From: Candidatus Omnitrophota bacterium
Lineage (GTDB): Bacteria > Omnitrophota > Gorgyraeia > Gygaellales > Profunditerraquicolaceae
Reading direction: 5' to 3'
Length of the DNA: 31,916 bases
Assembly: GCA_026387385.1 (NCBI GenBank)
Contig: JAPLLU010000032.1
Location: 1 to 31,916, forward strand
Position 1 is the stretch's first letter. Each line of letters begins with the position of its first letter. Both the position numbers and the translations under genes were made by a program. Shown here one piece after another: positions 3,357 to 21,511 of this stretch. The notes under the pieces were generated by a model that saw nothing but the letters and a program-made list of their open reading frames with translations, was not told the origin of the DNA and did not search any database.

Positions 3357-4730
3357 ATGAATAATCCAAAAAATTTGCCCATTGCTTTGGTGGTTGATGA
3401 TGAGCCAGCGGTCTTAGAAACCTTTGAGACTATTTTGGAGGGAAGGTTTGAGGTTCTAACCGCAAGGAGCGGTAAAGACGCCCTGGATAAGATAGCAAAG
3501 GAATCGATTAATTTGGTTTTCTTAGATATTGCTATGCCGGATATGGATGGCATGCAGGTCCTGCGCAAGATAAAGGAATACGATGAAAACCTGCCTGTAA
3601 TTATGGCAACAGCTACAGATAGCGCACGCAAGGCAGTTGAAGCAATGCAGCTAGGAGCCAGTAATTATATTACCAAGCCTTTTGATGTAGATGAGGTGAT
3701 AACAGTAGCCGAGAAGGCCCTAGAGCAAGATAAATTATTTAGAGAGGTAGTCTATTTCCGTTCTCAAAGAGAAGAGACTAAATTTGAGAATATTGTGGGT
3801 AAAAGCAAAAAAATAAGAGAAATATACGGCATAATTGAAAAGGTGATAAAGAACGATTCTACGGTCCTGGTATCCGGAGAAAGCGGGACTGGCAAAGAGT
3901 TAATCGCCCGGGCTATACACTTTAACAGCACCAGGAGACAAAAGCCATTTATACCCATTAATTGCGCTGGTATACCGGAAGCCCTATTAGAGAGCGAATT
4001 GTTCGGCCATGAAAAAGGAGCTTTCACCGATGCTATTAATCAGAAGTTAGGGATGTTTGAGCTGGCTAATGAGGGCACGCTCTTTTTAGATGAAATTTCC
4101 GGATTAAGATTGGGCGTGCAGGCAAATCTTTTAAGAGCCCTGGAGGAAAAAGAAATCAGGAGGTTGGGCGGCACAAAAATAATTAAAGTAGATGTGCGCA
4201 TAATATCCGCTACCAATGTTGACCTAAAACAGGCAGTAGAGGTAGGGAAGTTCAGAAACGATTTATACTACCGTTTGAATGTCGTACCCATACACCTTCC
4301 CGTTTTAAGGGAACGCCGAGAAGATATACCTTTATTAGTCGCCTATTTCTTGCAGAGGTATAATCAGCTTTTCAGAAAAAAGATAGAAGCTTTCACTAAA
4401 GAGGCTTTGGAATATTTGGTGAATTACGCTTGGCCGGGGAATGTAAGAGAACTCAAGAATGTCATAGAGCGGCTTGTAGCTTTAAGGGATGAAGGCGTGA
4501 TTACTTCCAAGGACCTGCCCTTTGATATTTTTATCAAGAGCGGCCTAGTAAGGGCTTTCCATGCCGAAGGCGGGCTCAAAGAAGCAAGTAAAGATTTTGA
4601 GAAGCAATACATAGAAGCAGTTTTAGAAAAAGTTAGGGGAAATCAAGTCAAGGCAGCTAAGATATTAGGAATACATCGCAATGCTCTTTTCAACAAGATG
4701 AAAAGCCTGGGATTAAAAAATAGTGAATAA
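3357..4730 (+). CDS. Sigma54-dependent NtrC-family response regulator (REC - AAA+ sigma54 activator - Fis-type HTH)
   Basis: Receiver domain (VVDDE, LDIAMPDMDG), Walker A GESGTGKE, the sigma54-contact loop ESELFGHEKGAFTDA (a GAFTGA variant), the Arg finger region and a C-terminal HTH (QVKAAKILGIHRNALFNKMK). Confidence 0.9.
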   Translation: MNNPKNLPIALVVDDEPAVLETFETILEGRFEVLTARSGKDALDKIAKESINLVFLDIAMPDMDGMQVLRKIKEYDENLPVIMATATDSARKAVEAMQLGASNYITKPFDVDEVITVAEKALEQDKLFREVVYFRSQREETKFENIVGKSKKIREIYGIIEKVIKNDSTVLVSGESGTGKELIARAIHFNSTRRQKPFIPINCAGIPEALLESELFGHEKGAFTDAINQKLGMFELANEGTLFLDEISGLRLGVQANLLRALEEKEIRRLGGTKIIKVDVRIISATNVDLKQAVEVGKFRNDLYYRLNVVPIHLPVLRERREDIPLLVAYFLQRYNQLFRKKIEAFTKEALEYLVNYAWPGNVRELKNVIERLVALRDEGVITSKDLPFDIFIKSGLVRAFHAEGGLKEASKDFEKQYIEAVLEKVRGNQVKAAKILGIHRNALFNKMKSLGLKNSE

Positions 4731-6591
4731 GAAATATCTAACCGCTAACTCCGCATGGGCTTTATTATTGGCTATATTCATTATCGGGATAATACATGCT
4801 CCGGTAGCGGCAGAAAACAGCAAAGAAATAGAATTACAAAAGATAATAGTAACTAACAGAAGAACACCTGTTGGCCTCAGTGAAACAACTGAAAATGTGG
4901 TGGTAGTTAATGAAGAAGAAATCAAGCAATTGCCCGCCAGGGATTTAAGCGAAGTCCTAAATTACATACCGGGTGTTTATGTTGAGCCAGGGCGCGGTTT
5001 TGGCCGTGCCACTTCCGTCAGTATTCAGGGGTCAGACTCCCGGCAAGTAAGGGTGATGATTGACGGCATACCTTTGAATACGCAAGCCTCAGGCCAGGTA
5101 AACCCCTCAAAATTCCCTATCGAAGACATAGCTAGGATAGAAGTAATTAAAGGTTCGGCTTCCAGCATCTGGGGCTCTGCCTTAGGAGGAGTGATAAACA
5201 TTATTACCAAGGATACGGGAAATTCATTAATACCGGAAGGTAGCATAACCAATACCTTTGCTGAATTCCGCACACAAAAACACAGTTTTGATTTATCCGG
5301 CAAAGCGCTAGGCCTTGGTTATTATATTTTCTCAAGTTATATGGAATCAGGCGGAAATGGGCCAAAGGATGATATTTTGGAGAAAAAGTCATTCGGTAAG
5401 CTATCCTATGATTTAGAAGAGCAGGGTAAAATTACCGGCTCCTTTGGTTTTAGCGAAGGAGATGTCAATAGCGGGGTGTTGCCGGATAATACCTGGGAAG
5501 CCCACCCCTACCGCTGCCAGTACGGCAAGGTTGGCTGGGAAGGGAATGTTAAAGATTCAAATATAAGAATAGATTTAAAGCGTTCCCGCCAGGATATAAT
5601 TTCCGATTATTTTCTTTCGGTTGACGATGAAGCCCCTTACCTAGCCATAAAATCTAAAGACCTGCTTTATCAGTTGAGTTTAAATTCCAGCACCCGCCTT
5701 AGAGGGAAAGACCTCTTGGTCTTGGGTGTTGATTTTGATTCTGATACCTTAAAGTCTACTTATCTTACCAAAGCAAAAAATTTAAAATTACAGGCGCCCT
5801 ATGCTAATTACAGTTTGAAATTAAATCCCTGGGATTTCAATTTTGGGTTGCGTTACGACCGTAATAGCGAATTCGGACAGGACATAAGCCCGTCATTCGG
5901 CTGCGTATACCATTTAGGCAGTAGGGAAGACACCTTAATAAGGCTTAATATCTCCCGTGCCTTTAACGCTCCGCCGCTATTGTGGAAGTATTATATTGAA
6001 AGCCTAAGCGGCCTTACCACTAACCCTGACCTTGGGCCTGAGCGCGCCATGGTTTATGAGTTGGGCTTGGAAAGTCAGCCTGTAGCCAGGGTATGGTTAA
6101 AACTTTCATTATACAAAGCAGATATTTCTGATGCTATCTCCAATGCCAAGAACCTAGAAGGCAAATGGATTAAAAAGAACTTTGAAGAATTCAGAAGGCA
6201 GGGAATAGAGGCAGAGGTTAGATTAAAACTATTTGAGGATTTAAGCTTTTTCGGCTCAGGCGCTTTTAATGATATTGAAAACAGGACAACAGGGGAAACT
6301 GTTAAAGACGCAGATAGCCCCAGGCAGTCTTTTGATTTAGGGTTTGAATATAAGAATAAGATAGGCACCTGTCTTTATATTAACGGCCGTTATGATTATT
6401 GGAACAAGACTTTTGATATCTTCCAGCCAAAAGACAGAAAATTCATCTTTGACCTTAAGGCCAGGCAAAAGGTCAAGAATCTCACCTGTTTTTTAAATAT
6501 CTACAATATCTTTGACAGCGAATACTGGTCAGATTTCTATAATCCCATCCCAAGAAGATACTTTGAAGGCGGCTTTTCAATCGATTGGTAA
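4723..6591 (+). CDS. TonB-dependent outer-membrane receptor (short, BtuB-sized)
   Basis: A signal peptide, a plug domain (ETTENVVVVNEEEIKQLPARDLSEVLNYIPGV, IRGSDSRQVRVMIDGIPLN), a beta-barrel and a C-terminal aromatic ending ...GGFSIDW. The GTG start overlaps the activator stop by 8 nt (GTGAATAA). Confidence 0.85.
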   Translation: MNKKYLTANSAWALLLAIFIIGIIHAPVAAENSKEIELQKIIVTNRRTPVGLSETTENVVVVNEEEIKQLPARDLSEVLNYIPGVYVEPGRGFGRATSVSIQGSDSRQVRVMIDGIPLNTQASGQVNPSKFPIEDIARIEVIKGSASSIWGSALGGVINIITKDTGNSLIPEGSITNTFAEFRTQKHSFDLSGKALGLGYYIFSSYMESGGNGPKDDILEKKSFGKLSYDLEEQGKITGSFGFSEGDVNSGVLPDNTWEAHPYRCQYGKVGWEGNVKDSNIRIDLKRSRQDIISDYFLSVDDEAPYLAIKSKDLLYQLSLNSSTRLRGKDLLVLGVDFDSDTLKSTYLTKAKNLKLQAPYANYSLKLNPWDFNFGLRYDRNSEFGQDISPSFGCVYHLGSREDTLIRLNISRAFNAPPLLWKYYIESLSGLTTNPDLGPERAMVYELGLESQPVARVWLKLSLYKADISDAISNAKNLEGKWIKKNFEEFRRQGIEAEVRLKLFEDLSFFGSGAFNDIENRTTGETVKDADSPRQSFDLGFEYKNKIGTCLYINGRYDYWNKTFDIFQPKDRKFIFDLKARQKVKNLTCFLNIYNIFDSEYWSDFYNPIPRRYFEGGFSIDW

Positions 6592-6600
6592 GAAAGGTTA

Positions 6601-6644
6601 TTTGTGCACAGGAGTGGTATTTGCACAGTTTTTTGTGCATATAA
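6601..6644 (+). promoter_or_regulatory. Candidate enhancer (UAS): three TGTGCA-type repeats
   Basis: TGTGCACA at 6603-6610, TTGCACAG at 6621-6628 and TGTGCATA at 6635-6642 lie about 90-130 bp upstream of the sigma54 promoter. The geometry and the palindromic GTGCAC-like sites are typical of NtrC-family enhancer-binding-protein sites. Confidence 0.5.
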
Positions 6645-6730: not shown

Positions 6731-6746
6731 TGGCACAGAAGTTGCT
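6731..6746 (+). promoter_or_regulatory. Sigma54 (RpoN) -24/-12 promoter
   Basis: TGGCAC-AGAAG-TTGCT matches the consensus TGGCAC-N5-TTGCW with correct GG/GC spacing (GG at 6732-6733, GC at 6744-6745). It sits about 18 nt upstream of the SBP start. Confidence 0.7.
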
Positions 6747-6763: not shown

Positions 6764-8359
6764 ATGCGCGTAATTATATTTACCCTGCTCATTATGCTCA
6801 CACTTACCGTAACAGGAAACAAGGGTATAACCAAACAAGACAAACCTTATGGCGGAATCCTGGTTTGGGGCACGCGCAATAAGCCCACCATAATAAATCC
6901 TCTTTTTACTACCTCCAGCGTTTCTATGTCTTTGCTTGATTTGATATTTAACCGCTTGGTAAGAATAGGTTCAAAAGGCGAAATAGAGCCGGATTTGGCA
7001 GAATCTTGGGATATTTCTTCGGATGGCCTGGTTTATACCTTTTATTTAAGAAAAGGTGTCCGCTTTCATGATGGAGTAGAATGCACCGCAGACGATGTTA
7101 AATTTACTTATGAAAGTGTTATTAATCCAAAGAATAATTCGCCGTTTAATTCTCTCTTTGAATCGGTCAATGATTTTAAAGTAATTGACAAATATACCTT
7201 CCAGATAATCTTAAAGAAGCCATCATCACCGTTTATTTACAGGCTGGTAAGAGAAATAACCCCCAAACATATTCTTGAAGGGGCGGATTTAAGGAATTGT
7301 AATTTTAATTTTCATCCTATTGGCACGGGGCCATTCAGGTTTAAAGAATGGGGAAAGGACAACCAGATTATCTTAGAATATAATCCTGGTTATTATGAAG
7401 GAAGGCCTTATCTGGATAGGATTATTGTGAAAGTATATCCTGACTCCCGCGACCTCTGGACTGGTCTGATGCGCGGTGAAGTGGATTATGCCACATTTAT
7501 AGAGAGAGAGGATTATGAGGTGATTAGGGATGATCCGGCATTTAAAGCCTACGCCTTTCCCGTCGATATTTATTACGCTCTTTTTTATAATTTAGATGAC
7601 CCTTTATTAACTGATAAGAGGATTCGAGAGGCAATTGCTTATGGTATAGACAGAAAGGCATTGATAGAGAAGGTAGCTTATGGTTATGGTATGGAATGCG
7701 TAGGCCCTTTTTATCCTAAATCTTTAGGGTTTAATCCTGAGGTTTTACCTTTTGAATATAATCCGCAAAAATCACTTGAATTATTAAGAGAAGCAGGATG
7801 GAAGGATAAAGATAATGACGGAATCTTAGAGAAAAGGGGAGAAGAGTTAGAACTTAGGGTATTGGTTGACACAAGGAGCGAGATTTATCAAAGGATAATT
7901 ATGGCTATCAGGCAGCAACTGCAGCAGATTGGGATTAAGGTTAAGGTAATATTATATGATAATGAAGATATGCTTACCGAAGAATTCTTAAAAAATCTCA
8001 GAGTTCAAGCGCATCTAAAATTATTTATGGCTGGGCGTGCCGATGATATAGAAGAAGAATGGTATTCTAAGTACAAAAGAGGCGGTAAATTATGGGTTTA
8101 TGAAGATGAGGAAGTGAATAAGCTTTTTGAATTAGGAGAAATTAGTCAAGATAAGAAGAAAAGACAGGAAATATATCAAAAAATTAATCAGCTTATTTAT
8201 GAAAAACAGCCCGCCGCTTTTCTCTATTTTCCATTTGTTTTTCATGTTGTTTCTGCAAAACTCGCAAATACAAACGAATATTTTACCTTAAGCATGCCAA
8301 CTTATACGATGAAAGATTGGTATATGAGAGATAAAATAGAAAGCAAGTATTTTAAATGA
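6764..8359 (+). CDS. ABC-transporter substrate-binding protein, family 5 (peptide/nickel, Opp/Dpp-like); orphan, no cognate permeases nearby
   Basis: A signal peptide plus the family-5 signature region LAESWDISSDGLVYTFYLRKGVRFHDGVECTADDVKFTYESV, at 531 aa. No Opp/Dpp BCDF genes are in the window. Confidence 0.85.
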   Translation: MRVIIFTLLIMLTLTVTGNKGITKQDKPYGGILVWGTRNKPTIINPLFTTSSVSMSLLDLIFNRLVRIGSKGEIEPDLAESWDISSDGLVYTFYLRKGVRFHDGVECTADDVKFTYESVINPKNNSPFNSLFESVNDFKVIDKYTFQIILKKPSSPFIYRLVREITPKHILEGADLRNCNFNFHPIGTGPFRFKEWGKDNQIILEYNPGYYEGRPYLDRIIVKVYPDSRDLWTGLMRGEVDYATFIEREDYEVIRDDPAFKAYAFPVDIYYALFYNLDDPLLTDKRIREAIAYGIDRKALIEKVAYGYGMECVGPFYPKSLGFNPEVLPFEYNPQKSLELLREAGWKDKDNDGILEKRGEELELRVLVDTRSEIYQRIIMAIRQQLQQIGIKVKVILYDNEDMLTEEFLKNLRVQAHLKLFMAGRADDIEEEWYSKYKRGGKLWVYEDEEVNKLFELGEISQDKKKRQEIYQKINQLIYEKQPAAFLYFPFVFHVVSAKLANTNEYFTLSMPTYTMKDWYMRDKIESKYFK

Positions 8360-8372
8360 AAGGAGGTGAAAA

Positions 8373-8468
8373 ATGGAAGTGATTAGAAAAGGTTCAGACA
8401 ATGTGTCTAAGGTAGGTCCGCTTGGCTGTTGTTATCCGCCAGGAACCGAGAATCTTCGTGTAAGATAA
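8373..8468 (+). CDS. Unannotated 31-aa ORF MEVIRKGSDNVSKVGPLGCCYPPGTENLRVR; candidate RiPP precursor peptide
   Basis: Perfect SD AGGAGGTG 5 nt before the ATG, 13 nt after the SBP stop and about 100 nt before the rSAM/SPASM gene. It has a Cys-Cys-Tyr-Pro-Pro-Gly core. It is too short for the supplied ORF track. Confidence 0.55.
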   Translation: MEVIRKGSDNVSKVGPLGCCYPPGTENLRVR

Positions 8469-8484
8469 CAAAGTTAGCAAATGT

Positions 8485-8530
8485 TCCTTGCAGTAAAGCC
8501 CTGGGCGGCCGACCAGGGTTACTACAAGGA
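8485..8530 (+). promoter_or_regulatory. Long hairpin (attenuator/processing element) between the precursor ORF and the maturase
   Basis: TCCTTGCAGTAAAGCCCTGG-GCGGCCGA-CCAGGGTTACTACAAGGA forms a stem of about 19 bp with one G/A mismatch. It is not followed by a U-run, so it is not a full terminator. Confidence 0.6.
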
Positions 8531-8570
8531 AATTAGTTAGACAGCTCTAAAAGATTATTTTAAGGAGTAA

Positions 8571-9935
8571 ATGAAGATGAAATTATCCAGATTTAATCTA
8601 TGCGTAGAGAATTATCCTGAGCAGGGAGAGAATTTATTATTTAATACCCGCACCCAGGCCTTGATAAAGATAAATCCGGAATTAAAAGGCCTTCTGGATA
8701 GTCTAGAGAAACTAAAGGTAGAAGATTTAGGCTTGATAACAAGAGGGCATCTCGCTGCTTTAAAAGAAAACGGAATCATCGTAGAGGATGAAAATGAGGA
8801 AGAAGCCAAATTAAAGGACTTCTTCCGGCAGCTAAAATATGATTCCTCTTTTTTGCCTTTTGAGGTTACTATTCTTACTACCTATGCCTGCAATTTCCGC
8901 TGTGTCTATTGTTTTGAGGAGTCGGTCAAAGAAGATGTTTTTTTAGACAAGGAGACCAGTGATTTAATCATTAAGTGGTTAATCCAGAGGGCTGAGGAGA
9001 AAAAATTTAAACGCATCTTTTTAGTCTATTATGGCGGAGAGCCCCTCTTAAACATCAGGCCTATTTACGACATCTCCTGGCATATAAGAGAATGGGCGCA
9101 AAAAAAAGGAGTTGAGTTTGGCTTTGGGATTATTACTAACGGCAGCCTTATAAATCCCGACTTAATTGATAAATTTACTACCGTAGGCCTAAAAGATATT
9201 CGCATCACTATCGATGGAGATAGAAGCGAACATAATAAGAAGAGGCCTTTTTGTGACGGACGGCCAACCTTTGACCTGATTATCGATAATATCAAAAGCA
9301 TAATCGATAAGGTTAAGGTAGGGGTGGTGGGTAATTTTGACCGGGAGAATGTTGCAAGTATCCCCGGGTTCCTTGATTATTTAGAGAAAGAGGGGCTTCT
9401 TTATAGATTAGACCGTATTGATTTTGCTCCGCTATCCCCGCGCCTGGGCCCAAGGAGCAATCCCGGGGCAATTGAGCTGGCAGAGTGTTTATCCTTTGTG
9501 AGTAAAGACGGATTATTTAACGAAGTGCTGGCTGTTAAGAGAGAGTTAATGAGGCGGGGGATTAAGATTAGGACGGGTTTAGCCATTAACGCCTGCTCTT
9601 TGATTATGCAGGACGCAGCAGTGACTATTGACCCGGAAGGGTTAATCTATAAATGTAATTCTCTTGTAGGATATTCAGAGTTTTCCCTTGGTAATGTGCA
9701 GAGCGATGAATTTGAAGAGAAATCCAGGGAGTTTTTAAATATTGATGCCTGGGATAAATGCCCAATGGATTGCCCTTATATCCCTATGTGCCAGGGCGGA
9801 TGCCGTTTTTATTCCTATTTGGAAAATAATAATTTTTCTGATTTGTCCTGCAAGAGAGAGTATTTTGACCGCATTACCCCGGAGTTAATTAAGCTGGAAT
9901 ATCATAAACTACTCAGCGAAAAGAGTAGCTCCTAA
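8571..9935 (+). CDS. Radical SAM enzyme with a C-terminal SPASM domain (peptide-modifying maturase class)
   Basis: CxxxCxxC cluster in ACNFRCVYC, a C-terminal SPASM Cys cluster CPMDCPYIPMCQGGCRF plus an upstream CNSLVGY, and an N-terminal LFNTRTQALIKINPELKGLL stretch typical of peptide-maturase rSAM N-termini. Confidence 0.85.
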   Translation: MKMKLSRFNLCVENYPEQGENLLFNTRTQALIKINPELKGLLDSLEKLKVEDLGLITRGHLAALKENGIIVEDENEEEAKLKDFFRQLKYDSSFLPFEVTILTTYACNFRCVYCFEESVKEDVFLDKETSDLIIKWLIQRAEEKKFKRIFLVYYGGEPLLNIRPIYDISWHIREWAQKKGVEFGFGIITNGSLINPDLIDKFTTVGLKDIRITIDGDRSEHNKKRPFCDGRPTFDLIIDNIKSIIDKVKVGVVGNFDRENVASIPGFLDYLEKEGLLYRLDRIDFAPLSPRLGPRSNPGAIELAECLSFVSKDGLFNEVLAVKRELMRRGIKIRTGLAINACSLIMQDAAVTIDPEGLIYKCNSLVGYSEFSLGNVQSDEFEEKSREFLNIDAWDKCPMDCPYIPMCQGGCRFYSYLENNNFSDLSCKREYFDRITPELIKLEYHKLLSEKSSS

Positions 9936-9960: not shown

Positions 9961-11757
9961 ATGAGCAATTTAAAAGAGTTTTTAGCGCTTTTAAGGCCTT
10001 ACAAGAAACAAGTCTTCTTTACAATTTTAGCCATTCTTATAGCTAATCTGTTAGGCCTGGCTTTTCCTTGGGTTATTAAGATAGTTATTGATGAGATATT
10101 ACCTAAGAAGAATATATTTTTGCTTAATACCCTGGCAATAGCCCTAATACTTGTTTTTATTCTAAAATTTTATTTTGGGTATCTACGCGAGTATTTAATT
10201 TCTCTTATCGGAGAAAATGTAGTCTGCGATTTACGTAATAAACTCTATTGGCACCTGCAGAGATTATCGGTTAGATATATTGAGAATAATCCGACAGGAA
10301 AGATTATTTCAGGGGTTATCGGAGACGTAGAGAGCATTAGAAACTTCTTATTTGGGGGAGTGGTTGATTTTATCTATTCATTTTTTAACGTTTTTTTTGT
10401 CCTGGTTATTTTATTTATTTTAGACTGGAGGTTAACTTTAATTTCCCTTCTTTATCTACCTGCATTCGGCCTGGCCTTCTTTAAATTTACTCCGCGCCTA
10501 AAAAAGAAACACGAATTTATAAGAAACAAATACGCTGAGTTGACCTCAAGGTTAAATGAGGTATTTAACGGGATTCGCATAGTCAGCGGATTTGCCAAGG
10601 AGGAATATGAAGCAAATGAATTCAATTTCAAACAGAAAGAAATATTTAAAGCTTCTATGGGGAGCCATAAATTAGGAATTTTATTATGGATGTCATCCGA
10701 ATTTGTCAGTTCCCTGGGATTAGTTACGCTTATCTGGTTGGGAGCAAAGGCGGTTTTCTCCGGCCGAATATCCACAGGGACATTAATGGCTTTCTATTCC
10801 TATCTGGGCATGCTATTTTTTCCAATAATTAAGATGGTGATTATCAATAATTACTATCAGGAGGCAGCTGCCTCTTTAGAGCGCATTAATAAGGTATTAA
10901 CTGAAGAACCAAAGATAAAAGAGGCGAAACACGCGATTTCGCTCGACAGTATAAAAGGGAATATAAAGTTCGAAGATGTTAGTTTCGGTTATGATAATAA
11001 CAAGGAGGTTTTATCTGAAATTAACCTTGAGGTAAAAGAATCAGAGGTAGTAGCTTTAGTGGGTAAGAGTGGCGCAGGAAAGACTACCTTGTTAAATTTA
11101 CTTTTAAGGTTTTATGATACGACAAAAGGAGATATCTTTATCGATGGTTATAATCTGAAAGGCTTGGAATTAAAATCCTACCGCTCCAAGATCGCTATGG
11201 TTCTTCAGGACGATTACTTGTTTAGCGGAACAGTTAAAGAAAATATAATTTATGGCAAGTTAGGGGCTTCCAAAGATGATATAATAAAGGTGGCAAGATT
11301 AGCCAACGCTCATCAGTTTATTATGGAGTTGCCCGATGGTTACGATACGCAGATTGGTGAGCGAGGGATTAAATTATCTTACGGTCAGAGACAGAGGATT
11401 TCTATCGCCAGAGCCATATTACGAGACCCGGCAATTTTAATTTTAGATGAAGCTACCTCTTCTGTGGATTCAGAGACCGAACGTTTAATCATTGAACAGG
11501 CTTTTGAGAAATTAATGAGTGGCCGCACTACCCTTATGGTTGCGCATAGGCTTTCTACAATAACCCATGCCGATAAGATTGTTTTTATTGAAGGCGGAAA
11601 GATAGCTGAGACGGGAGGGCACTTTCAGCTGCTGGATAGAAAAGGAAGTTATTGGAAAATGTGGCTTGAGCAGGTTCGGGCTACAAACTGCAAATTGCAA
11701 TCTAGAAGTTATACACTCGAAAGCAAAGATTTTAAAACAGGGAGCTTAAATATCTAA
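9961..11757 (+). CDS. ABC exporter, fused permease-ATPase (type I exporter, MsbA-like); no N-terminal C39 peptidase domain
   Basis: Six N-terminal TM helices, Walker A GKSGAGKTT, signature LSYGQRQR, Walker B ILILDEATS and an H-loop AHRL. Confidence 0.9.
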   Translation: MSNLKEFLALLRPYKKQVFFTILAILIANLLGLAFPWVIKIVIDEILPKKNIFLLNTLAIALILVFILKFYFGYLREYLISLIGENVVCDLRNKLYWHLQRLSVRYIENNPTGKIISGVIGDVESIRNFLFGGVVDFIYSFFNVFFVLVILFILDWRLTLISLLYLPAFGLAFFKFTPRLKKKHEFIRNKYAELTSRLNEVFNGIRIVSGFAKEEYEANEFNFKQKEIFKASMGSHKLGILLWMSSEFVSSLGLVTLIWLGAKAVFSGRISTGTLMAFYSYLGMLFFPIIKMVIINNYYQEAAASLERINKVLTEEPKIKEAKHAISLDSIKGNIKFEDVSFGYDNNKEVLSEINLEVKESEVVALVGKSGAGKTTLLNLLLRFYDTTKGDIFIDGYNLKGLELKSYRSKIAMVLQDDYLFSGTVKENIIYGKLGASKDDIIKVARLANAHQFIMELPDGYDTQIGERGIKLSYGQRQRISIARAILRDPAILILDEATSSVDSETERLIIEQAFEKLMSGRTTLMVAHRLSTITHADKIVFIEGGKIAETGGHFQLLDRKGSYWKMWLEQVRATNCKLQSRSYTLESKDFKTGSLNI

Positions 11758-11769
11758 CAGCAAGATAAT

Positions 11770-13548
11770 ATGAGACGCCAAAAGAGGCTAATAAAACGCT
11801 TTTTATTAAATTTCTTCTACCGTAAGTTGTGGGTAAGGATTGCGATTATATTACTTACGATAGTTACTATACCGGTAGTGCTTTTAGGAGTTTTACTGAT
11901 TAATACCTCTCAGAAAGCAGTGAGAAGCTCGGTATTAAATAACCATAAGCAGATTGTAATCAGGACAGCGGAGGAGATAGGATTATTTGTAAAAAAACCC
12001 CAGGATATCTTAAATATTACTGCGGCAATGCTGGGGATAGTTTATCCTGCGCCCTGGAAGCAAGAGACAGTGCTGGTAGAATTAGTCCTCAATCAGCCTA
12101 TTTTTATGCGTGCCGCTACTGTAGATTTATCAGGCGAAGAAATAGCTAGTTCTGAGTTAGGAAAGGCATTTGTTTGGGACATTCCCAAAGAGGCCTTAGA
12201 AGAAATAGAGGGAGGGAAAGTTTATATTTCTGAAGTCAAGATTTTAGATAACCATACCCCTTTTGTAACTATGGCTGTTCCGATTAATAAGATGGGCAGG
12301 AGGGTCGCAACGCTGATTGCCGAAGTTAATTTAAGAGGCATGTGGGATATCATAGATAACATCAGAATAGGTAATACGGGCAGGGCTTTCTTGGTGTCTA
12401 AGGGGGGAGTTTTAATAGCCCACCAGGACAAAAAGAGGGTGTTAAAGAATGAGAATATGATGGAGCAAAAAGAAGTCCAGTTGGTTTTAGCCGGTAAAAC
12501 CGATGCAGTGGAATTAGAGGATAAATTAGAAGGCAAGCTGATTAGCTCCTATGCCCCTATTCCTGGTTTAGACTGGGGGGTTGTCTTAAGGCAACAGCAG
12601 GATGAGGCCTATTTATTTTCTAAGGTAATGAAGATCCAATCCTGGATAATTATCATTTTTAGTGAACTAGTTGTTGTTTTAGTGAGCATTTTTATGTCCA
12701 AGGTCTTTGCCCGGCCAATTAAAACCCTGGCTTCCCGGATCAAAAGAGTAGCCGCAGGAGATTTAGACCATAAAATCAAAATAAAGATGCGCGATGATAT
12801 TGGAGAATTAATCAGGTCCTTTAACGATATGACCAAGAAGTTGAAGAAGGCCAGGCTTAACGAACGACTCTCGGCAATAGGAGAGGCAGTGGCGTGGATA
12901 ACGCATGAACTCAAGAATTCTTTAATATCTATAAAATCTTTCGTTCAATTATTTCCCCAAAGACATAAAGACGAAAAATTTGTGCATAAATTCGCTAAAT
13001 TAATACCGCAGGAGATTGAACGCCTGGAAGGCATGTTTAAAGAATTGTCTGATTTTTCTTCTCATTCAGAGCTAAAGTTAGCTAGAGTAAACGTGAAGGA
13101 AATAATAGACGGCGTTTTAGAAATAATGAAAGAGGGCTTGATAGAAAAGAAAATCAATATTAGCTACAATACTCAGAATGATAATTATTATATTCAAGCT
13201 GACCCAGAGAGGCTCAGAAGGGTTTTTATGAATTTGATAATTAATTCAGTAAATGCAATGCCAAACGGAGGCTTGCTTACAGTCTCCATAGGCTTAGGAG
13301 GCAATAAATATTCAGAGATCCCTGAATGCCTGGAAGTAAAAGTAACCGATACAGGCATAGGCATGTCTAGAGAAGCGCTGGATAAGATATTCGAACCCTT
13401 CCATACTACTAAGGACGGAGGCATGGGCTTAGGGCTTACCATAGGCCGCAAAATTATCGAACAGCACGGCGGGAATATTTATGCAGAAAGTGAAATAAAT
13501 AAAGGGACGACCTTTGTCGTAAGATTACCAGCAGGCATACTGAAATAG
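11770..13548 (+). CDS. Sensor histidine kinase (TM - about 245-aa periplasmic Cache-like domain - TM - HAMP - HisKA - HATPase_c)
   Basis: Two TM segments flank a large extracytoplasmic domain. The HAMP is at about 313-365, the H-box is ITHELKNSLISIKSF, the N-box is NLIINSVNAM, and DTGIGM and GLGLTIGRKIIEQHGG follow. Confidence 0.85.
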   Translation: MRRQKRLIKRFLLNFFYRKLWVRIAIILLTIVTIPVVLLGVLLINTSQKAVRSSVLNNHKQIVIRTAEEIGLFVKKPQDILNITAAMLGIVYPAPWKQETVLVELVLNQPIFMRAATVDLSGEEIASSELGKAFVWDIPKEALEEIEGGKVYISEVKILDNHTPFVTMAVPINKMGRRVATLIAEVNLRGMWDIIDNIRIGNTGRAFLVSKGGVLIAHQDKKRVLKNENMMEQKEVQLVLAGKTDAVELEDKLEGKLISSYAPIPGLDWGVVLRQQQDEAYLFSKVMKIQSWIIIIFSELVVVLVSIFMSKVFARPIKTLASRIKRVAAGDLDHKIKIKMRDDIGELIRSFNDMTKKLKKARLNERLSAIGEAVAWITHELKNSLISIKSFVQLFPQRHKDEKFVHKFAKLIPQEIERLEGMFKELSDFSSHSELKLARVNVKEIIDGVLEIMKEGLIEKKINISYNTQNDNYYIQADPERLRRVFMNLIINSVNAMPNGGLLTVSIGLGGNKYSEIPECLEVKVTDTGIGMSREALDKIFEPFHTTKDGGMGLGLTIGRKIIEQHGGNIYAESEINKGTTFVVRLPAGILK

Positions 13549-13566: not shown

Positions 13567-14214
13567 ATGCCGATAAAAATTATCTTAGCCGATGACCATA
13601 ATATGGTTCGCCAAGCCATAAGTGCCCTGCTTGAACAGGATACAGTGATAGAAGTTGTTGGCGAAGCAGCGGACGGTCAGGCAACGTTAGAGTTGGTCCG
13701 CAACAGTAGGCCTGATGTGGTCATCATGGATATTGCGATGCCGGATTTGAACGGAATTGAGACTACGCGTAGGATAATCAAGGAGTTTCCTGATGTAAAA
13801 GTGATTGCCTTATCAGTCCATTCTGAAAAGAAATTTGTTTTTCAGATGTTCAAAGCCGGAGCATCCGGCTATCTGCTCAAAGACTGTATTTTTGAAGAGC
13901 TACTTTCTGCTATTCAAGTTGTTATAAAAAACCAAATATATATATCACCTAAAATATCAAGTTCTGTAGTTAGGGACTATTTAGGCCAATCTGTAAAGAA
14001 TGATTTTAACGCATTTTCTGTCTTGACCAATAGGGAACGCGAAGTCTTGCAGCTTCTTACTGAAGGAAAAACCGCAAAGCAAATTGCTTCTATCTTGAAA
14101 ATAAGCGTAAAGACAATCGAGACGCACCGTAAACAAATCATGGATAAATTGAACATCCGCAGCATAGCCGAACTCACCAAATACGCTGTCCGCGAAGGGT
14201 TAACTTCTTTATAA
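13567..14214 (+). CDS. Response regulator, NarL/LuxR family (REC + LuxR-type HTH)
   Basis: ILADDHNMVRQ, DIAMPDLNG and a C-terminal REREVLQLLTEGKTAKQIASILKISVKTIETHRKQIMDKLN. It lies 18 nt after the HK. Confidence 0.9.
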   Translation: MPIKIILADDHNMVRQAISALLEQDTVIEVVGEAADGQATLELVRNSRPDVVIMDIAMPDLNGIETTRRIIKEFPDVKVIALSVHSEKKFVFQMFKAGASGYLLKDCIFEELLSAIQVVIKNQIYISPKISSSVVRDYLGQSVKNDFNAFSVLTNREREVLQLLTEGKTAKQIASILKISVKTIETHRKQIMDKLNIRSIAELTKYAVREGLTSL

Positions 14215-14809: not shown

Positions 14810-17743
14810 ATGAAAATCCGTACTAAACTATATCTTTCGCTGTCCTTAACTATAATACTGTTCGGGATTATCTTTGTTGTCTACGGGTTTATTCAAAGAG
14901 AAAGTTTTGTTGGGCTCTTCATAAATGAAGCTCATGAGAAGGAAGTAATTTTTGACAAGATTCTAATACTTAAAGGAGCACCCTTAGAAACATTCACATT
15001 CGATTATTCTTATTGGGATGAGATGGTTAATTTTATTGCAAATGAAAATGAATCTTGGGCAAAAGAAATGATAAACACAAGTGTTCTTACAAACTATGGT
15101 ATTAATGCAATATGGTTATACAAAACCGATTATTCTCTTCTATATTCCATCGATAACTTAAAGGACAATGGTTTTAAAGAGGTTCCTTTGAATAAAGAAA
15201 TCATTAATAGTGTATTTTTGCATAAGCAGTTGTGTCATTTCTTCCTGAATACATCCAAAGGCTTGATGGAGATACGCGGAGCCACTATTCATCCAACACT
15301 TGACGTAGAGAGAAAAACTCCATCGCGAGGATACATATTTGCTGCAAAATTATGGGGTAAAGAGTACATTGATGAACTTTCTAGATTAATCGGTGGCACA
15401 ATACAGATCACAAACCCTGAAGAAAAAACAGTTGTAAGTAATCAGAGTCTAGAAAAGGCCATAATTACCTTTTCAAGAATATTAACTGATTGGAATGAAA
15501 CTCCGTTGATCCGTCTTAATATCCGGTTTGAGTCTTATGGTCTTAAAGAATTTAATCATATATTCAAACAGCGTTTTATCATTTTTATTCTTTTTGCAGG
15601 AAGTATTTTGGTTATTATTTTATTCATCTTTACACGTTGGATAAGCATGCCCCTACGAAAAATATCCTTCGCTTTAAATTCAAAAGACCCCTCTTACATA
15701 GCCAGTTTGAAGAGACACAATGATGAGTTTGGTGATATATTGCTAATGATTGAAAATTTTTTAAAGCAGGAGGAGATACTGCGCAAGAGTGAAGAACAAT
15801 TCCGTTTGGTGGTAGAAGAAACGGTTGATTATGCTATTTTTATGTTGGATTCTGATGGGCGCATTGTCAGTTGGAATAAAGGAGCAGAGCGCATTAAAGG
15901 ATATCGAGCGGGAGAGATCATTGGAAAACATTTTTCAGCCTTTTATACCAGTGAAGACATCCAACGCGGCAAGCCTGAAGAGGAACTGAAGAAAGCGAGG
16001 GTCGAAGGTCGGTGTGAAGACGAGGGATGGCGTGTGCGAAAGGATGGCTCGCAATTTTTAGCCAACGCAATCATTACGGCATTATATGATCAAGCCGGGA
16101 ACTTGCGTGGATTCTCAAAAGTAACACGCGATATCACCAAGCGTAAGAAATCAGAGGATGAACTGTATAGACTTAACCGTGCGCTTAAGACAATCAGTGA
16201 GTGTAACCAGACTTTAGTACGCGCTACTAATGAGAGTAACTTACTGCATGAGATATGTCGTAACCTTGTGGGAGTTGGCGGATATCGTTTGGCGTGGGTC
16301 GGCTTTGCTGAACAGAACGAAAAAAAGATTGTGCGTCCGGTGGCACAGGCTGGATATGAAGAGGGGTACTTGGAGAATTTAAACTTTACTTGGTCTGATG
16401 CAGAATTAGGCCATGGGCCAACAGGCACATCTATCAGAATGGGTAAAATTTGCATATGTAAGAACGTCCTAACTGATCCAAGGTTTGCTCCTTGGAGAGA
16501 TGAGGCGATTAAACGCGGTTATGCATCGTCTATAGCCCTTCCTATGACTGCCGAAGGACGGACCTTTGGCGCACTGAATATATATGCGGATGAGCTGGAT
16601 GCCTTTGATGAACAGGAGGTCAGTATGCTGGAGGAATTGACAAATGACTTGGCATACGGCATATTTGCATTACGTACTCATTCAGAACGCGAACAGGCCC
16701 AGGAATCATTGAAAAAACTTCACAGTGCAATTGAACAAACAGCGGATATCGTTGTTATAACTAATAAAGAAGGAGTAATTGAGTATGTTAATCCTGCATT
16801 TGAGAAAACAACAGGCTATGCAAAAGAAATAGCTATCGGCCAGACACCAAGAATTATTAAGTCTGGTAAGCACGATCAAAGATTTTACGAAATGTTATGG
16901 AAGACAATTCTTTCCGGCAACGTCTTCCGCGACACGCTCATTAATAGAAGGAAAAATGGTGAGTTCTATTACGCAGAAAAAGCCATCACGCCAATAATAG
17001 ACAAGGAGGGAAACATTACGCATTTTGTCTCAACCGATAAAGACATCACTGAACGCAAAGAAATAGAAAAAACTCAAAGACTCGCTCAGTTAGGAGAACT
17101 TGTCGCGGATATGGCCCATGAGGTAAATAACCCCCTCATGATTATCTCAGGAAACGCCCAGCTTTCCTTACTTGATGGAACGCTTAATGAAGAGATTAAG
17201 AGCAATCTTAAAATTATCCACGAAGAATGCAACAGGGCAAAGGATATTATTCAGAGGCTTCTTAAGTTCTCAAGGCCAAGCAAGGGTGAACGAAAGGGAA
17301 CAGATATTAATCAGAGTATCGAGTCTGTTACAAAGCTCATAGAACACCAATTTAGCTTAAGTAACGTAAAAATAAAGAAAGACTTAAAGTACGATCTTCC
17401 TGCCATAGTAATAGATGAAAAACAGATGCAGGAAGTATTTATGAATCTCTTGAACAACGCAAGAGATGCCATGCCTGAAGGAGGAGAGATTATCATCAAC
17501 ACATCTTTAGACGGCGAGTACTGCAAAATAGAAATGAAAGATTCCGGAGTTGGCATGGATGATAAAACCCTAGCCAGAGTGTTTGAGCCATTCTTTACCA
17601 CCAAAGAAAAAGGGACAGGCTTAGGGCTTTCTGTTTGCTTCGGGATCATAAAAGCCCATAACGGAAAAATAGAGTTTAAAAGCCAGTTGCAGAAAGGCAC
17701 AACTGCGCATATCTGGTTACCCATTAAAGCGGAAGGAGTGTAA
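14810..17743 (+). CDS. Large sensor histidine kinase (TM - extracytoplasmic domain - TM - PAS - GAF - PAS - HisKA - HATPase_c)
   Basis: PAS S-box FRLVVEETVDYAIFMLDSDGRIVSWNKGAERIKGY, a GAF domain (LLHEICRNLVGVGGYRLAWVGF...), a second PAS (IVVITNKEGVIEYVNPAFEKTTGY), the H-box MAHEVNNPL, then NLLNNARDAM, DSGVGM and GTGLGLSVCFGIIKAHNG. Confidence 0.9.
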   Translation: MKIRTKLYLSLSLTIILFGIIFVVYGFIQRESFVGLFINEAHEKEVIFDKILILKGAPLETFTFDYSYWDEMVNFIANENESWAKEMINTSVLTNYGINAIWLYKTDYSLLYSIDNLKDNGFKEVPLNKEIINSVFLHKQLCHFFLNTSKGLMEIRGATIHPTLDVERKTPSRGYIFAAKLWGKEYIDELSRLIGGTIQITNPEEKTVVSNQSLEKAIITFSRILTDWNETPLIRLNIRFESYGLKEFNHIFKQRFIIFILFAGSILVIILFIFTRWISMPLRKISFALNSKDPSYIASLKRHNDEFGDILLMIENFLKQEEILRKSEEQFRLVVEETVDYAIFMLDSDGRIVSWNKGAERIKGYRAGEIIGKHFSAFYTSEDIQRGKPEEELKKARVEGRCEDEGWRVRKDGSQFLANAIITALYDQAGNLRGFSKVTRDITKRKKSEDELYRLNRALKTISECNQTLVRATNESNLLHEICRNLVGVGGYRLAWVGFAEQNEKKIVRPVAQAGYEEGYLENLNFTWSDAELGHGPTGTSIRMGKICICKNVLTDPRFAPWRDEAIKRGYASSIALPMTAEGRTFGALNIYADELDAFDEQEVSMLEELTNDLAYGIFALRTHSEREQAQESLKKLHSAIEQTADIVVITNKEGVIEYVNPAFEKTTGYAKEIAIGQTPRIIKSGKHDQRFYEMLWKTILSGNVFRDTLINRRKNGEFYYAEKAITPIIDKEGNITHFVSTDKDITERKEIEKTQRLAQLGELVADMAHEVNNPLMIISGNAQLSLLDGTLNEEIKSNLKIIHEECNRAKDIIQRLLKFSRPSKGERKGTDINQSIESVTKLIEHQFSLSNVKIKKDLKYDLPAIVIDEKQMQEVFMNLLNNARDAMPEGGEIIINTSLDGEYCKIEMKDSGVGMDDKTLARVFEPFFTTKEKGTGLGLSVCFGIIKAHNGKIEFKSQLQKGTTAHIWLPIKAEGV

Positions 17744-18117
17744 TGAATAAAATTTTGGTAGTGGATGATGAGGAAAGAATTGTCGATATCACGGAAAAGT
17801 TCTTGAAGATGAACGGTTTTGACGTGGTCAAGGCCATAGGTGGAGAAGAAGCGATAAGGATTTTGTCAACTGATACGCAGATTGATCTGATGGTGCTTGA
17901 TATGAAGATGCCCAAAGTAAACGGCTTGGGCGTGATGCAAAAAAAAACAGAATTAGGCAAAAAGTTCCCGGTATTGCTTCTTACGGGTTCAATCGATGCA
18001 GAAAAGTACCTTGAGGTATTGAAAGATAAAGGTTTTACAGCAGAGGATATTCTTTACAAGCCGATTGATTTGTCTGTATTGCTGGAGAAGGTGAAGCAGA
18101 AATTAAACATTGCCTGA
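17743..18117 (+). CDS. Single-domain (CheY-like) response regulator
   Basis: ILVVDDEERIV, LDMKMPKVNG and a conserved Lys region. The start overlaps the HK stop (TAATGA). Confidence 0.85.
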   Translation: MNKILVVDDEERIVDITEKFLKMNGFDVVKAIGGEEAIRILSTDTQIDLMVLDMKMPKVNGLGVMQKKTELGKKFPVLLLTGSIDAEKYLEVLKDKGFTAEDILYKPIDLSVLLEKVKQKLNIA

Positions 18118-18140
18118 AGTGATGATTTTTAACGATAAGA

Positions 18141-19460
18141 GTGAAAAATATTATGCCTGATACACAATTACATGACGAGCTAATACCAAAATACCGCTGG
18201 GCCGGCAAGATCAGACTGATAAGCTTTTCTCTGCTTTTTGTTTTTTTTCTTATGATGAAGTTTGTTGGCGGGTTTTCCTATCTTAACCCTGCGTTGTACG
18301 CCATCATTTTTGTGGAAGCCCTCCTTAACCAGCCATATGGTTTTTTTCTAAACAAAGTTAATCTGAGCCGCTTCCAGTATTTTCAGATGCTCACCGATAT
18401 TATTGCCATCAGCTGGGTTTTGTATTACATGGGTGGCCTGGCAGCTCCGGTGGTTAGCCTTGCCTATTACGCAGTTATCCTTTGGGCGGGAGTTGTTGCC
18501 GGTTTTGGGGCGGCGTTGTTTGGGGTTCTTACTTGCGCATTCTTTTTCTCGTCTGTCGTGTTGTTAGAGCAATTTGGCATATTGTCGCGCGTATCTTTTT
18601 CAAATTACTCTATGCCGACAACGCAGGTAGTAACTATTCTTATGGGTAACGTAGCATTTCTTTTTGCGTTCGGATATTTTAGCGTTCGTTCTTCAGAGCT
18701 TCTACGTCTCTTGCAGAGGAAGAGGCAGGAGGAATCGCTGCGATACACTCACAGGCTTCAAGCGACAGGTTACCTGATGAGTGAGACTGCCCATGATATA
18801 CAGGGATGTTTGGCCGGCATTAAGGCCGGGGTTCAGGTATTACAAGATCTGGGAAGCCACAGCGAGGAAGAAAAGAAATTCCTGACGTCTATTGGAGATT
18901 TTGAGAAAAAATGCGCTGATTTGGTCCAGCGGTTGGCAAAATTTTCAAAAAAGCCTAAAAAAGAATATCTACCGGTTAATGCTCATGCTGTTATTGAGGA
19001 TGCTTTAGAGTTAACCTTTCCGCTGGTAAGGTATTCTCAAATGACTATTCAAAAAACATTTGACCAAAATATCCCTCTCATTGCTGCAGACAAAGACCAA
19101 ATGCAGGAAGTCTTTGTGGTTATCATATTAAACGCGTTAGATGCTGTATCCGATAAGCCAAAAGGCGGGGAGCTTAACATAAGAACCAAGTGTTTAGAGG
19201 AGGCGGGATTGGTAGAGATTATTTTCTCCGATACCGGGATAGGGCTAAAACCAGATGAGTTAAGGCGGATAGGCGAGCCATTTTTTAGCTCGAAGAAAGC
19301 CGCAGGAGGTTCAGGCTTAGGCCTAGCTACTGCTTATGATATAGTTGCAAGGCATAGCGGAAGAATTGACGTGGAGAGCAGAGAAAGCGAAGGGACAACA
19401 TTCACCATTCGGTTGCCATTTATCCCGCCTTCGCAGAAGACTCCCGCTGTTTTCTTGTGA
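18141..19460 (+). CDS. Membrane histidine kinase with an N-terminal multi-TM (about 5-6 helices) sensor domain
   Basis: A hydrophobic N-terminal 180 aa, a dimerisation/phosphoacceptor region around ETAHDIQGCLAGIKAG, and an HATPase_c (ILNALDAV, DTGIGL, GGSGLGLATAYDIVARHSGRI). Confidence 0.8.
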   Translation: MKNIMPDTQLHDELIPKYRWAGKIRLISFSLLFVFFLMMKFVGGFSYLNPALYAIIFVEALLNQPYGFFLNKVNLSRFQYFQMLTDIIAISWVLYYMGGLAAPVVSLAYYAVILWAGVVAGFGAALFGVLTCAFFFSSVVLLEQFGILSRVSFSNYSMPTTQVVTILMGNVAFLFAFGYFSVRSSELLRLLQRKRQEESLRYTHRLQATGYLMSETAHDIQGCLAGIKAGVQVLQDLGSHSEEEKKFLTSIGDFEKKCADLVQRLAKFSKKPKKEYLPVNAHAVIEDALELTFPLVRYSQMTIQKTFDQNIPLIAADKDQMQEVFVVIILNALDAVSDKPKGGELNIRTKCLEEAGLVEIIFSDTGIGLKPDELRRIGEPFFSSKKAAGGSGLGLATAYDIVARHSGRIDVESRESEGTTFTIRLPFIPPSQKTPAVFL

Positions 19461-20187: not shown

Positions 20188-20196
20188 GGGGATGAT

Positions 20197-20703: not shown

Positions 20704-20720
20704 AGCTCTGGGGATTAATT

Positions 20721-21488: not shown

Positions 21489-21511
21489 ACGTTATAAGGA
21501 AGGAAGAATTT

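Follow-up and report, generated by a model that had tools for sequence, protein, structure and literature searches.

What does the radical S-adenosylmethionine (SAM)/SPASM enzyme encoded on this contig of a Candidatus Omnitrophota bacterium (JAPLLU010000032.1; the whole stretch of 31,916 nucleotides is hereafter the window) act upon, and is its substrate encoded by the small open reading frame (ORF) just ahead of it? The initial annotation had pointed to an unannotated 31-codon ORF at 8373-8468, 13 nt past the stop codon of a solute-binding protein (SBP) gene and before the radical SAM/SPASM gene, as a possible precursor of a ribosomally synthesised and post-translationally modified peptide (RiPP). 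Position and translation were exactly as quoted there. The ORF starts with ATG (8373-8375), ends with TAA (8466-8468) and encodes MEVIRKGSDNVSKVGPLGCCYPPGTENLRVR, and the SBP gene stops at TGA (8357-8359), leaving the gap of 13 nt. The consensus Shine-Dalgarno sequence, AGGAGGTG, was present as well, although its spacing of 5 nt has to be corrected trivially, to 4 nt from the end of AGGAGGTG or 6 nt from the GGAGG core. On the other side, 102-108 nt separate the ORF from the start of the radical SAM ORF (8571, likelier 8577). We propose with good confidence that ORF 8373-8468 encodes a 31-residue RiPP precursor for a CteB-like maturase about 105 nt downstream.

Based on a profile-based scan of metagenome contigs with the radical SAM protein, 80 loci (L numbers below) were collected. 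The conservation counts refer to 48 related metagenomic loci with enough upstream DNA and the window, 49 in total (47 distinct nucleotide sequences). The radical SAM protein has more than 120 relatives at 57-95% identity, nearly all from Omnitrophota metagenome-assembled genomes or metagenomes. An intact precursor homologue was detected upstream of the radical SAM gene, at a distance of 54-284 nt, in 48/48 other loci, for which the identity of the enzyme ranges from 36 to 82%; the homologues are 28-39 residues long across the 49 loci, with one copy per locus. All loci with an enzyme identity of at least 49% and enough upstream DNA carry the precursor, and the precursor-less loci of that group are on contigs ending within 124 nt of the radical SAM start. 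Two more distant loci, L050 (41%) and L064 (36%), also carry it, and none was found in L052 and L053 (39-40%). A scan of genome contigs with the single radical SAM protein gave one distant Bdellovibrionia locus and nothing else, and was thus uninformative.

The precursor consensus is MEIIRKGSDxVx..GPLxCC[FYW]PxG[TS]xxxRxx, in which C19, the aromatic residue, P22 and G24 are found in 49/49 loci and C20 and R29 in 48/49. The exception for C20 is L046 (265-360), a single short contig in which Cys-Ser (TGT AGT) replaces Cys-Cys, either a sequencing error or a natural variant. The variability of codon positions 1, 2 and 3 was 0.81, 0.80 and 1.43 bits, respectively, for the 47 distinct sequences, the third position being about 1.8 times as variable as the first two. 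The pooled pS was 0.69 (saturated) and pN 0.31, with a pN/pS ratio of 0.45, and the median dN/dS over 678 pairs was 0.28, so that the check for purifying selection across orthologues, suggested at the outset, turned out in favour of the ORF. Synonymous turnover is extensive: the invariant Pro uses CCA, CCT, CCG and CCC, the invariant Gly all four codons and the near-invariant Arg six. Frameshifts or stop codons were found in 0/49 loci, and a purine-rich ribosome-binding site lies upstream in 49/49, with GGAGG within 20 nt in 43, GGGGGTGA in five others and just AAGGA in L044. ORF 8373-8468 is a genuine protein-coding gene under selection on its amino-acid sequence. This conservation with synonymous turnover, together with the co-occurrence with the maturase in 48/48 loci, supports the proposal of a RiPP precursor. 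The Cys-Cys and Tyr-Pro-Pro-Gly residues, singled out beforehand as modification sites, fared well except for one residue: Cys-Cys, the aromatic residue, the first Pro and the Gly are invariant or nearly so, but the second Pro is variable, and the motif is better written CC-aromatic-P-x-G.

The gene has been called elsewhere. In the closest relative, L082 (enzyme identity 95%), the ORF differs from that of the window by four synonymous and six conservative changes, and was predicted as a 31-residue gene by the gene caller of that assembly. A phmmer search over 1.8 billion representative proteins gave seven homologues of 30-33 residues, all unnamed or labelled 'hypothetical', while exact look-ups of the 31-residue peptide and of the window radical SAM protein returned nothing on record. 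Matches of the same search to proteins of 540-650 residues were discarded as chance, these being NHL-type repeats (GSDNVSKITPLGVS); residues 7-23 of the peptide (8391-8441, GSDNVSKVGPLG) resemble this beta-propeller repeat unit, and the resemblance was judged fortuitous.

The downstream enzyme models as a CteB-like maturase composed of an N-terminal domain resembling the RiPP recognition element (RRE), a radical SAM domain and a SPASM domain. Pfam detected Radical_SAM and Fer4_12 and nothing further. Across 29 homologues the CxxxCxxC motif (C107, C111 and C114) and seven Cys of the SPASM region (C342, C362, C397, C401, C407, C411 and C427) are invariant. The AlphaFold2 model (mean pLDDT 89) shows a three-strand/three-helix N-terminal domain ahead of the barrel, and its top fold matches, over about 470 columns, were CteB (5wgg/5why, E ~6e-21, TM-score 0.68/0.70), then TigE, anSME, ChlB and SuiB. 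CteB was also the sole match by sequence in the PDB. It is the thioether-forming maturase of SCIFF peptides, and its N-terminal domain binds the leader peptide. Among NCBIfam models, the best match was the geopeptide maturase TIGR04280, at 286 bits vs a cut-off of 400 bits, followed by CefB and other maturases of Cys-rich peptides, each below its cut-off. The ORF has two in-frame ATG codons, 8571 and 8577, and the homologues begin MKLS...; the true start is probably ATG 8577 because M3 is invariant among the homologues. The sequence AAGGAG (8563-8567) sits 9 nt before ATG 8577.

We consider it very likely that the window peptide is the substrate of the neighbouring enzyme. Its leader would extend over about M1-S12 (MEVIRKGSDNVS) and its core over about K13-R31, in which the conserved positions are C19, C20, Y21, P22, G24, T25 and R29. 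No Gly-Gly site is conserved in the alignment of the 49 loci, and the ABC transporter encoded 3' of the enzyme gave only ABC_membrane and ABC_tran domains, in agreement with the initial annotation, which had noted the lack of both a double-Gly leader site and a C39 peptidase domain; with neither a conserved GG nor a peptidase domain, the system falls outside the double-glycine-leader bacteriocin class. As to the chemistry, comparison with characterised relatives makes us lean slightly towards Cys-based thioether crosslinking, other possibilities being C-C crosslinks at aromatic residues or an oxidation of Cys like that by anSME. The radical SAM/SPASM enzyme anSME oxidises the C-x-P-x-R motif of sulfatases to formylglycine. 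The segment C20-Y-P-P-G24 (8430-8444), C-x-P-x-G, resembles that sulfatase motif; true geopeptides are without the Pro of C-x-P-x-G.

The curated system closest to the locus is the uncharacterised geopeptide system. In L078-L081, of which the radical SAM proteins are 29-31% identical to that of the window, the enzyme passes TIGR04280 at 547-584 bits, and peptides such as MKKRIVVVKKGMEKKELLEAVCCAGAVIPLMM, with the leader and Cys-Cys layout of geopeptides, are encoded just upstream. A TonB-dependent receptor gene precedes them in 4/4 loci, and in L079 the radical SAM gene is followed by genes for a PF04392 binding protein, an sCache/PAS/HisKA_3 kinase and a LuxR-type regulator. The window locus thus resembles these systems in a precursor of about 30 residues, of which the N-terminal leader is basic/hydrophobic ([IV][IV]x[KR]xG), in two vicinal Cys with small or Gly residues after them, in the adjacent radical SAM/SPASM maturase, in the TonB-dependent receptor upstream, and in nearby genes for a periplasmic binding protein, a histidine kinase and a response regulator. 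It differs from them in the enzyme (29-31% identity, and 286 bits vs the 400-bit cut-off), in the peptide core (CC[FYW]PxG[TS]xxxR), in the dedicated ABC exporter, in its Omnitrophota lineage, in the binding protein (SBP family 5 vs PF04392) and in regulation (sigma54/NtrC-type vs LuxR/HisKA_3). With the geopeptide precursor model TIGR04229 (cut-off 30 bits), neither the window peptide nor a consensus-like relative gave a match at E<=10, and the distant L050 peptide alone reached 16.5 bits. We therefore place the locus beside the geopeptides, as a sister variant and not as one of them, because both peptide and enzyme fall below the cut-offs of TIGR04229 and TIGR04280. A literature search gave no paper using 'geopeptide' as a whole word or citing TIGR04280, and the geopeptide system thus stands as a bioinformatic definition only; the search likewise gave nothing specific on Omnitrophota radical SAM RiPPs or on the combination of TonB-dependent receptor, SBP and radical SAM RiPP.

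A third clade, L054-L074 (enzyme identity 33-39%), has the order sigma54 regulator, radical SAM gene, peptide, SBP_bac_5 and dCache kinase, with the peptide gene 3' of the enzyme and a single Cys amid aromatic residues, as in MKLQVVKKGSRGDKKVLWCWWYIAR, MKIIKKGSKIIVPRPDCQWVLDHR and MKIKTVKTGKKEVKTLYCLFLVGG. Examples are L065 (5418-5495), L067 (5350-5424) and L069 (~3884-3958), with the motifs LWCWWY, DCQWV and LYCLF; these single-Cys peptides also appear unannotated. Another clade, L073, L075/L076 and L077 (34-35%, best match CefB), encodes the peptides MLVIQEAESEVLVGGEPNFCGCFISPVGSH and MVIIEHGIQDAMISGEPNFCIFCNPIKM upstream of the enzyme (for example, L075 2290-2382); these show the motif GEPNF and two Cys spaced as C-x(1-2)-C. 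Common to all clades are a leader of the K/R-K-G-S/T type and one or two Cys located about 17-22 residues in, and this shared layout fits a Cys-centred chemistry.

The gene organization around the precursor was examined by tblastn of the window proteins against all loci. The order sigma54 response regulator, TonB-dependent receptor, SBP, peptide, radical SAM enzyme, ABC exporter and dCache kinase was found in about 45 loci (coordinates for the window in Table 1). In all loci the SBP gene immediately precedes that of the precursor, the ABC gene is immediately 3' of the radical SAM gene in nearly all orthologous loci, and the position of the dCache kinase after the ABC gene is also conserved. 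A homologue of the regulator lies upstream of the receptor wherever the flank suffices (L009, L011, L019, L027, L043, L044, L048 and L070). The receptor is in the module of every locus with enough flank, mostly upstream of the SBP gene; in four loci, L014, L017, L024 and L031, it has moved behind the kinase. The nearest solved relative of the SBP is the oligopeptide-binding AppA (1xoc, E 1.6e-66). The membrane domain of the ABC half-transporter begins at residue 18. The sensor domain of the kinase is periplasmic, as two hydrophobic segments (18-48 and 285-318) flank the dCache domain. The NarL/LuxR-type regulator gene that follows is probably not part of the core because its homologues are limited to the closest relatives, L003, L010 and L036.

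Table 1. Features of the window around the precursor gene
Feature	Position	Strand	Basis
NtrC/AtoC-type sigma54-dependent response regulator (receiver, AAA+ sigma54-interaction domain, Fis helix-turn-helix)	3357..4730	+	Pfam, NCBIfam
TonB-dependent outer-membrane receptor (Plug and barrel, BtuB-sized)	4723..6591	+	Pfam, NCBIfam
Three TGTGCA/TGCACA repeats, candidate enhancer-binding sites	6603..6642	+	sequence
Sigma54 (-24/-12) promoter TGGCACAGAAGTTGCT	6731..6746	+	zero-mismatch TGGCAC-N5-TTGCW
Periplasmic SBP, family 5 (peptide/nickel/opine type), with signal peptide	6764..8359	+	Pfam SBP_bac_5, 309 bits
Shine-Dalgarno AGGAGGTG of the precursor gene	8361..8368	+	read from sequence
Precursor peptide gene, 31 residues	8373..8468	+	intact homologues, coding signature, called homologues elsewhere
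Stem-loop RNA	8484..8531	+	folding and covariation across loci
Radical SAM/SPASM peptide maturase, N-terminal RRE-like winged helix	8571..9935	+	Pfam, NCBIfam, alignment, AlphaFold2 fold
MsbA-like ABC half-transporter with exporter fold and without a peptidase domain	9961..11757	+	Pfam, NCBIfam
Sensor histidine kinase: first transmembrane segment, periplasmic dCache, second transmembrane segment, HAMP, HisKA, HATPase (AtoS/ZraS-like)	11770..13548	+	Pfam, NCBIfam
NarL/LuxR-type response regulator	13567..14214	+	Pfam

The sigma54 promoter TGGCACAGAAGTTGCT is the sole perfect match to the sigma54 consensus in the window and lies 18 nt before the SBP start. A promoter at the same position was found in 18 other loci with at most one mismatch, and in 2 more as a TGGTAT variant, among about 36 covered junctions. 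The TGTGCA/TGCACA repeats of the window lie about 100-130 nt upstream of the promoter, and such hexamers are present 74-164 nt upstream in 16 of the 18 other promoter-bearing loci, placed as would be expected for enhancer-binding sites of a sigma54 activator. From the predicted transcription start, the leader would be unusually short, about 8 nt, and overlap the AAGGTG ribosome-binding site of the SBP gene; loci in which the receptor gene directly adjoins the SBP gene are without the promoter. The receptor ORF, beginning with GTG, overlaps the stop of the sigma54 regulator by 8 nt (4723-4730). These two genes are probably co-transcribed, outside the sigma54-driven unit.

Based on these observations, the following course of events can be proposed. 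The operon from the SBP gene through the precursor, radical SAM and ABC genes to the kinase would be transcribed from the sigma54 promoter under the NtrC-type regulator, the stem-loop between precursor and enzyme punctuating or stabilising the transcript such that the precursor message exceeds the enzyme message. The N-terminal MEVIRKGSD of the peptide would serve as leader and dock as a beta-strand on the RRE-like domain, and the enzyme would apply 5'-deoxyadenosyl radical chemistry to the core around C19-C20-aromatic-P-x-G...R29. The most probable product would carry one or two intramolecular thioethers, each joining the sulfur of a Cys with a carbon atom in another residue. CteB and PapB form such thioethers, each link lowering the mass by 2 Da. 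Export of the product by the ABC transporter is probable, as judged from its fold and gene position. The peptide would then re-enter the periplasm through the dedicated TonB-dependent receptor, be bound by the orphan peptide-type SBP and be reported to the dCache kinase, which would activate the sigma54 regulator and so close an autoinducing loop for a diderm cell. That the receptor, SBP, kinase and regulator form such an autoinduction loop is our preferred, though tentative, proposal for the function. The context of receptor, binding protein, kinase and regulator recurs around three diverged peptide-enzyme clades, made up from non-homologous parts, and perception by the producer is favoured mainly because of this recurrence, our strongest argument. 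Still more tentatively, the locus might encode a self-contained peptide-pheromone circuit adapted to a cell with two membranes, and circuits of this logic might have been assembled at least three times, for the CC-peptides of Omnitrophota, for true geopeptides and for the WCWW/YCLF peptides with a single Cys.

Several points weigh against the proposal as a whole or against parts of it. It is built on sequence and predicted structure. The enzyme stays below every curated family cut-off of NCBIfam, the peptide matches none of the curated NCBIfam precursor models even at E<=10, and the type of modification is proposed by analogy with remote relatives, the identity to CteB being about 20%. The sigma54 promoter lies upstream of the SBP gene in just 19-21 of about 36 loci. 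No leader peptidase was found in the conserved module, and no route for export across the outer membrane is assigned within it. No BPD_transp permease of the Opp/Dpp/Nik type is encoded in the 31.9-kb window, and no importer permease was detected in the 4-kb flanks of the loci, which were screened with the window's own proteins alone. This lack and the periplasmic sensor domain of the kinase speak for sensing, but the former is no proof of signalling because a family-5 SBP without its own permease may use one from another part of the genome. At 26933-31105, on the minus strand, the window encodes a tripartite efflux set of a MacB-type ABC transporter, an HlyD-family adaptor and an OEP outer-membrane factor, which could, speculatively, carry the periplasmic peptide across the outer membrane. 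Another stretch, 14810-21877, is dense in further signalling genes and encodes a CHASE4-PAS-GAF-PAS histidine kinase (977 residues), several stand-alone receivers, another HATPase kinase and an extracytoplasmic function (ECF)-like sigma factor.

The main rival to an exported, re-imported and sensed peptide is a metallophore or nutrient scavenger, which would be exported, bind metal (through Cys-derived ligands, for instance), return through the TonB-dependent receptor and be passed to the SBP, either for delivery or for release of the metal in the periplasm, the two-component system responding to the loaded compound in the manner of siderophore-responsive sensors. A TonB-dependent receptor, a binding protein and an exporter beside a Cys-containing RiPP make up the layout of methanobactin operons (PMC3621798), and this likeness counts against autoinduction as the function of the module. 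The SBP also scores with NikA (199 bits) and CntA (164 bits), several NikA structures being matched, and the vicinal Cys-Cys is conserved (C19 in 49/49, C20 in 48/49), but the best relative of the SBP is the oligopeptide binder AppA, and Cys consumed in thioethers would be poor ligands. Furthermore, the single Cys in the hydrophobic WCWW/YCLF context of related clades makes a poor metal site, and the module includes neither a metal-responsive regulator nor an inner-membrane importer. We consider this role unlikely, while ranking it first among the alternatives.

The ABC exporter directly 3' of the maturase would also suit an antimicrobial peptide, a bacteriocin of the sacti- or ranthipeptide type, with the transporter for both export and immunity and with the receptor, SBP and kinase as unrelated neighbours, given that many peptides crosslinked by radical SAM/SPASM enzymes are antibacterial. 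These neighbours are, however, syntenic in about 45 loci, and their equivalents recur in distant clades by non-homologous replacement. In addition, the precursor is present in a single copy per locus, its core is under purifying, not diversifying, selection, and no immunity gene is evident, which makes this function improbable. The same short precursor with invariant core residues, served by a single SPASM enzyme, recalls the scaffold of a small redox cofactor or similar compound that is excised after crosslinking, as for PqqA/PqqE or MftA/MftC, and PqqE is indeed a distant fold match. The similarity to PqqE and MftC is, however, far weaker than that to CteB, the conserved module is without a peptidase or further tailoring enzymes, and the exporter and outer-membrane importer argue for an extracellular product; a cofactor scaffold is thus very improbable.

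The spacer between precursor and enzyme includes a stem-loop, with an outer stem of 8484-8496/8519-8531, an inner stem of 8499-8504/8513-8518 and the loop GCGGCCGA (8505-8512), without a T tract. A stable hairpin starting 1-58 nt past the precursor stop was found in 49/49 loci, with medians of 15 pairs, -22 kcal/mol and a z of -3.5 vs shuffled sequences. In 22/49 loci the loop reads GCGGCCGA throughout and is closed by the same G-C pair, despite the covarying stem, and compensatory changes were observed at 7/8 inner stem pairs among these 22. In many of the remaining loci the tip of the hairpin reads GGCC or CGGCC, and the window loop includes the palindrome CGGCCG. The conserved loop could be a protein site, an RNase site or a loop-loop contact. 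Because a G...A asymmetry is conserved and the changes in the stem are compensatory, the hairpin is considered an RNA element, and a sigma54 promoter or a symmetric DNA operator was rejected. An intrinsic terminator is ruled out for most loci by the lack of a T tract: a T-rich tail follows 4/49 hairpins, and a terminator scan does not call that of the window. With Rfam 15, region 8200-8700 gave at best 21 bits or less, far under the gathering scores, and the stem-loop belongs to no family known there. We read it as ending or protecting the part of the transcript that covers SBP and precursor, leading to more precursor message than enzyme message. Arrangements of this kind are frequent in RiPP operons.

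Two adjacent Cys codons in a small ORF, with a strong hairpin within 5-58 nt after it and then a gene, could also make up a cysteine-sensing attenuator, in which stalling of the ribosome on a regulatory leader peptide, itself without function, at the tandem Cys codons controls the hairpin. Selection on amino acids, however, spans the whole peptide and not just the Cys codons; this and the few T-rich hairpin tails led us to reject the attenuator, to which hardly any credence can be given. In addition, no competing pairing that could act as antiterminator was observed, the gene that follows encodes a peptide maturase, which carries a domain for peptide recognition and needs a peptide to act on, and a sister clade has the peptide gene downstream of its enzyme. 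A spurious ORF within conserved non-coding DNA or RNA between SBP and enzyme, for which the strong nucleotide conservation of the hairpin and the by-product conservation of an overlapping TTG ORF (8429-8536) might be cited, is refuted by residue invariance and codon statistics (three-base periodicity of substitutions and saturated synonymous sites beside invariant residues), with no frameshift or stop in the 49 loci and a ribosome-binding site in all, and keeps practically no probability. The initial annotation had offered conservation of the hairpin region without the ORF as the result that would speak against it, and the opposite was observed: conservation of the hairpin alone is excluded because the ORF is intact with synonymous turnover and invariant residues across loci, and the hairpin is a separate covarying element past the stop codon. 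The TTG ORF and two minus-strand ORFs (8288-8401 and 8394-8480) are without a ribosome-binding site, are conserved solely where they overlap the hairpin, and were discarded as by-products.

Precursors beside radical SAM/SPASM genes are common, and the precursor alone is not remarkable. The interest lies in the spread of the family across Omnitrophota, in the substrate-enzyme pair, and in the strictly conserved genes for uptake and sensing. The window peptide defines an unannotated family in this uncultivated phylum, always accompanied by uptake and sensor genes. The substrate gene of a widespread module has been hidden below the usual ORF cut-offs and is unnamed wherever it was called, and without it the locus reads as a 'SPASM domain-containing protein' plus transporters. 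An orphan clade of more than 100 distinct Omnitrophota radical SAM/SPASM clusters, sister to the uncharacterised geopeptide maturases, thereby gains a defined candidate peptide, in a clean minimal pair of one peptide and one enzyme. The strict conservation of the receptor, the binding protein, the kinase and the sigma54 regulator suggests that the producer perceives its product or takes it up, possibly for signalling by peptide or for scavenging of metal, in a phylum of uncultivated, ultra-small diderm cells. The geopeptide and related loci of other anaerobes with the same accessory genes may be explained likewise. If the reading as a recurrent pheromone circuit is true, TonB-gated RiPP sensing would be a general, hitherto unrecognised mode of signalling.

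Among the known systems, CteA-CteB (SCIFF/thermocellin, 5wgg/5why) shares with the window enzyme the RRE-like winged helix-turn-helix, the radical SAM barrel and the SPASM domain with auxiliary clusters, and likewise has a Cys-containing substrate encoded beside the enzyme. It differs in sequence, at about 20% identity, and in its substrates, SCIFF peptides being longer, with six Cys. The SCIFF class is marked by peptides of about 45 residues with six Cys and by enzymes scoring at least 425 bits with TIGR03974, whereas the window peptide has two Cys in 31 residues and its enzyme scores 97 bits; with the PapB model the enzyme scores 130 bits vs a cut-off of 340. The relationship to the CteB fold and the invariant Cys are the two features that suggest a place among the sacti- or ranthipeptides, in which the sulfur of Cys is bound to the alpha-carbon (sacti) or to a beta- or gamma-carbon (ranthi) of the acceptor. 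CteB- and PapB-type systems come from Gram-positive anaerobes and are not known to have a module of TonB-dependent receptor, SBP or kinase.

Binding-protein-dependent two-component sensing is known from LuxP-LuxQ, TorT-TorS and AioX-AioS-AioR, the last with a sigma54 activator, and a family-5 SBP takes a comparable part in DppA-Tap. Methanobactin operons combine a short Cys-containing precursor with an exporter and with a TonB-dependent transporter that takes the product up again, and sometimes with a periplasmic binding protein; their uptake is coupled to regulation (PMC3621798). In contrast to the window locus, they rely on MbnB/MbnC chemistry without a radical SAM enzyme, on a MATE-type exporter, and on an ECF sigma/anti-sigma pair acting via an extended receptor instead of a kinase and a sigma54 activator. 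The binding-protein-dependent sensing systems share with the locus a permease-less periplasmic binding protein encoded with a membrane kinase that has a periplasmic sensor domain, and the output would pass through a sigma54 activator, as in AioXSR. The window locus, with its putative SBP-kinase interaction, would differ from those systems in its proposed ligand, a RiPP that the cell makes itself and that a TonB-dependent receptor would admit.

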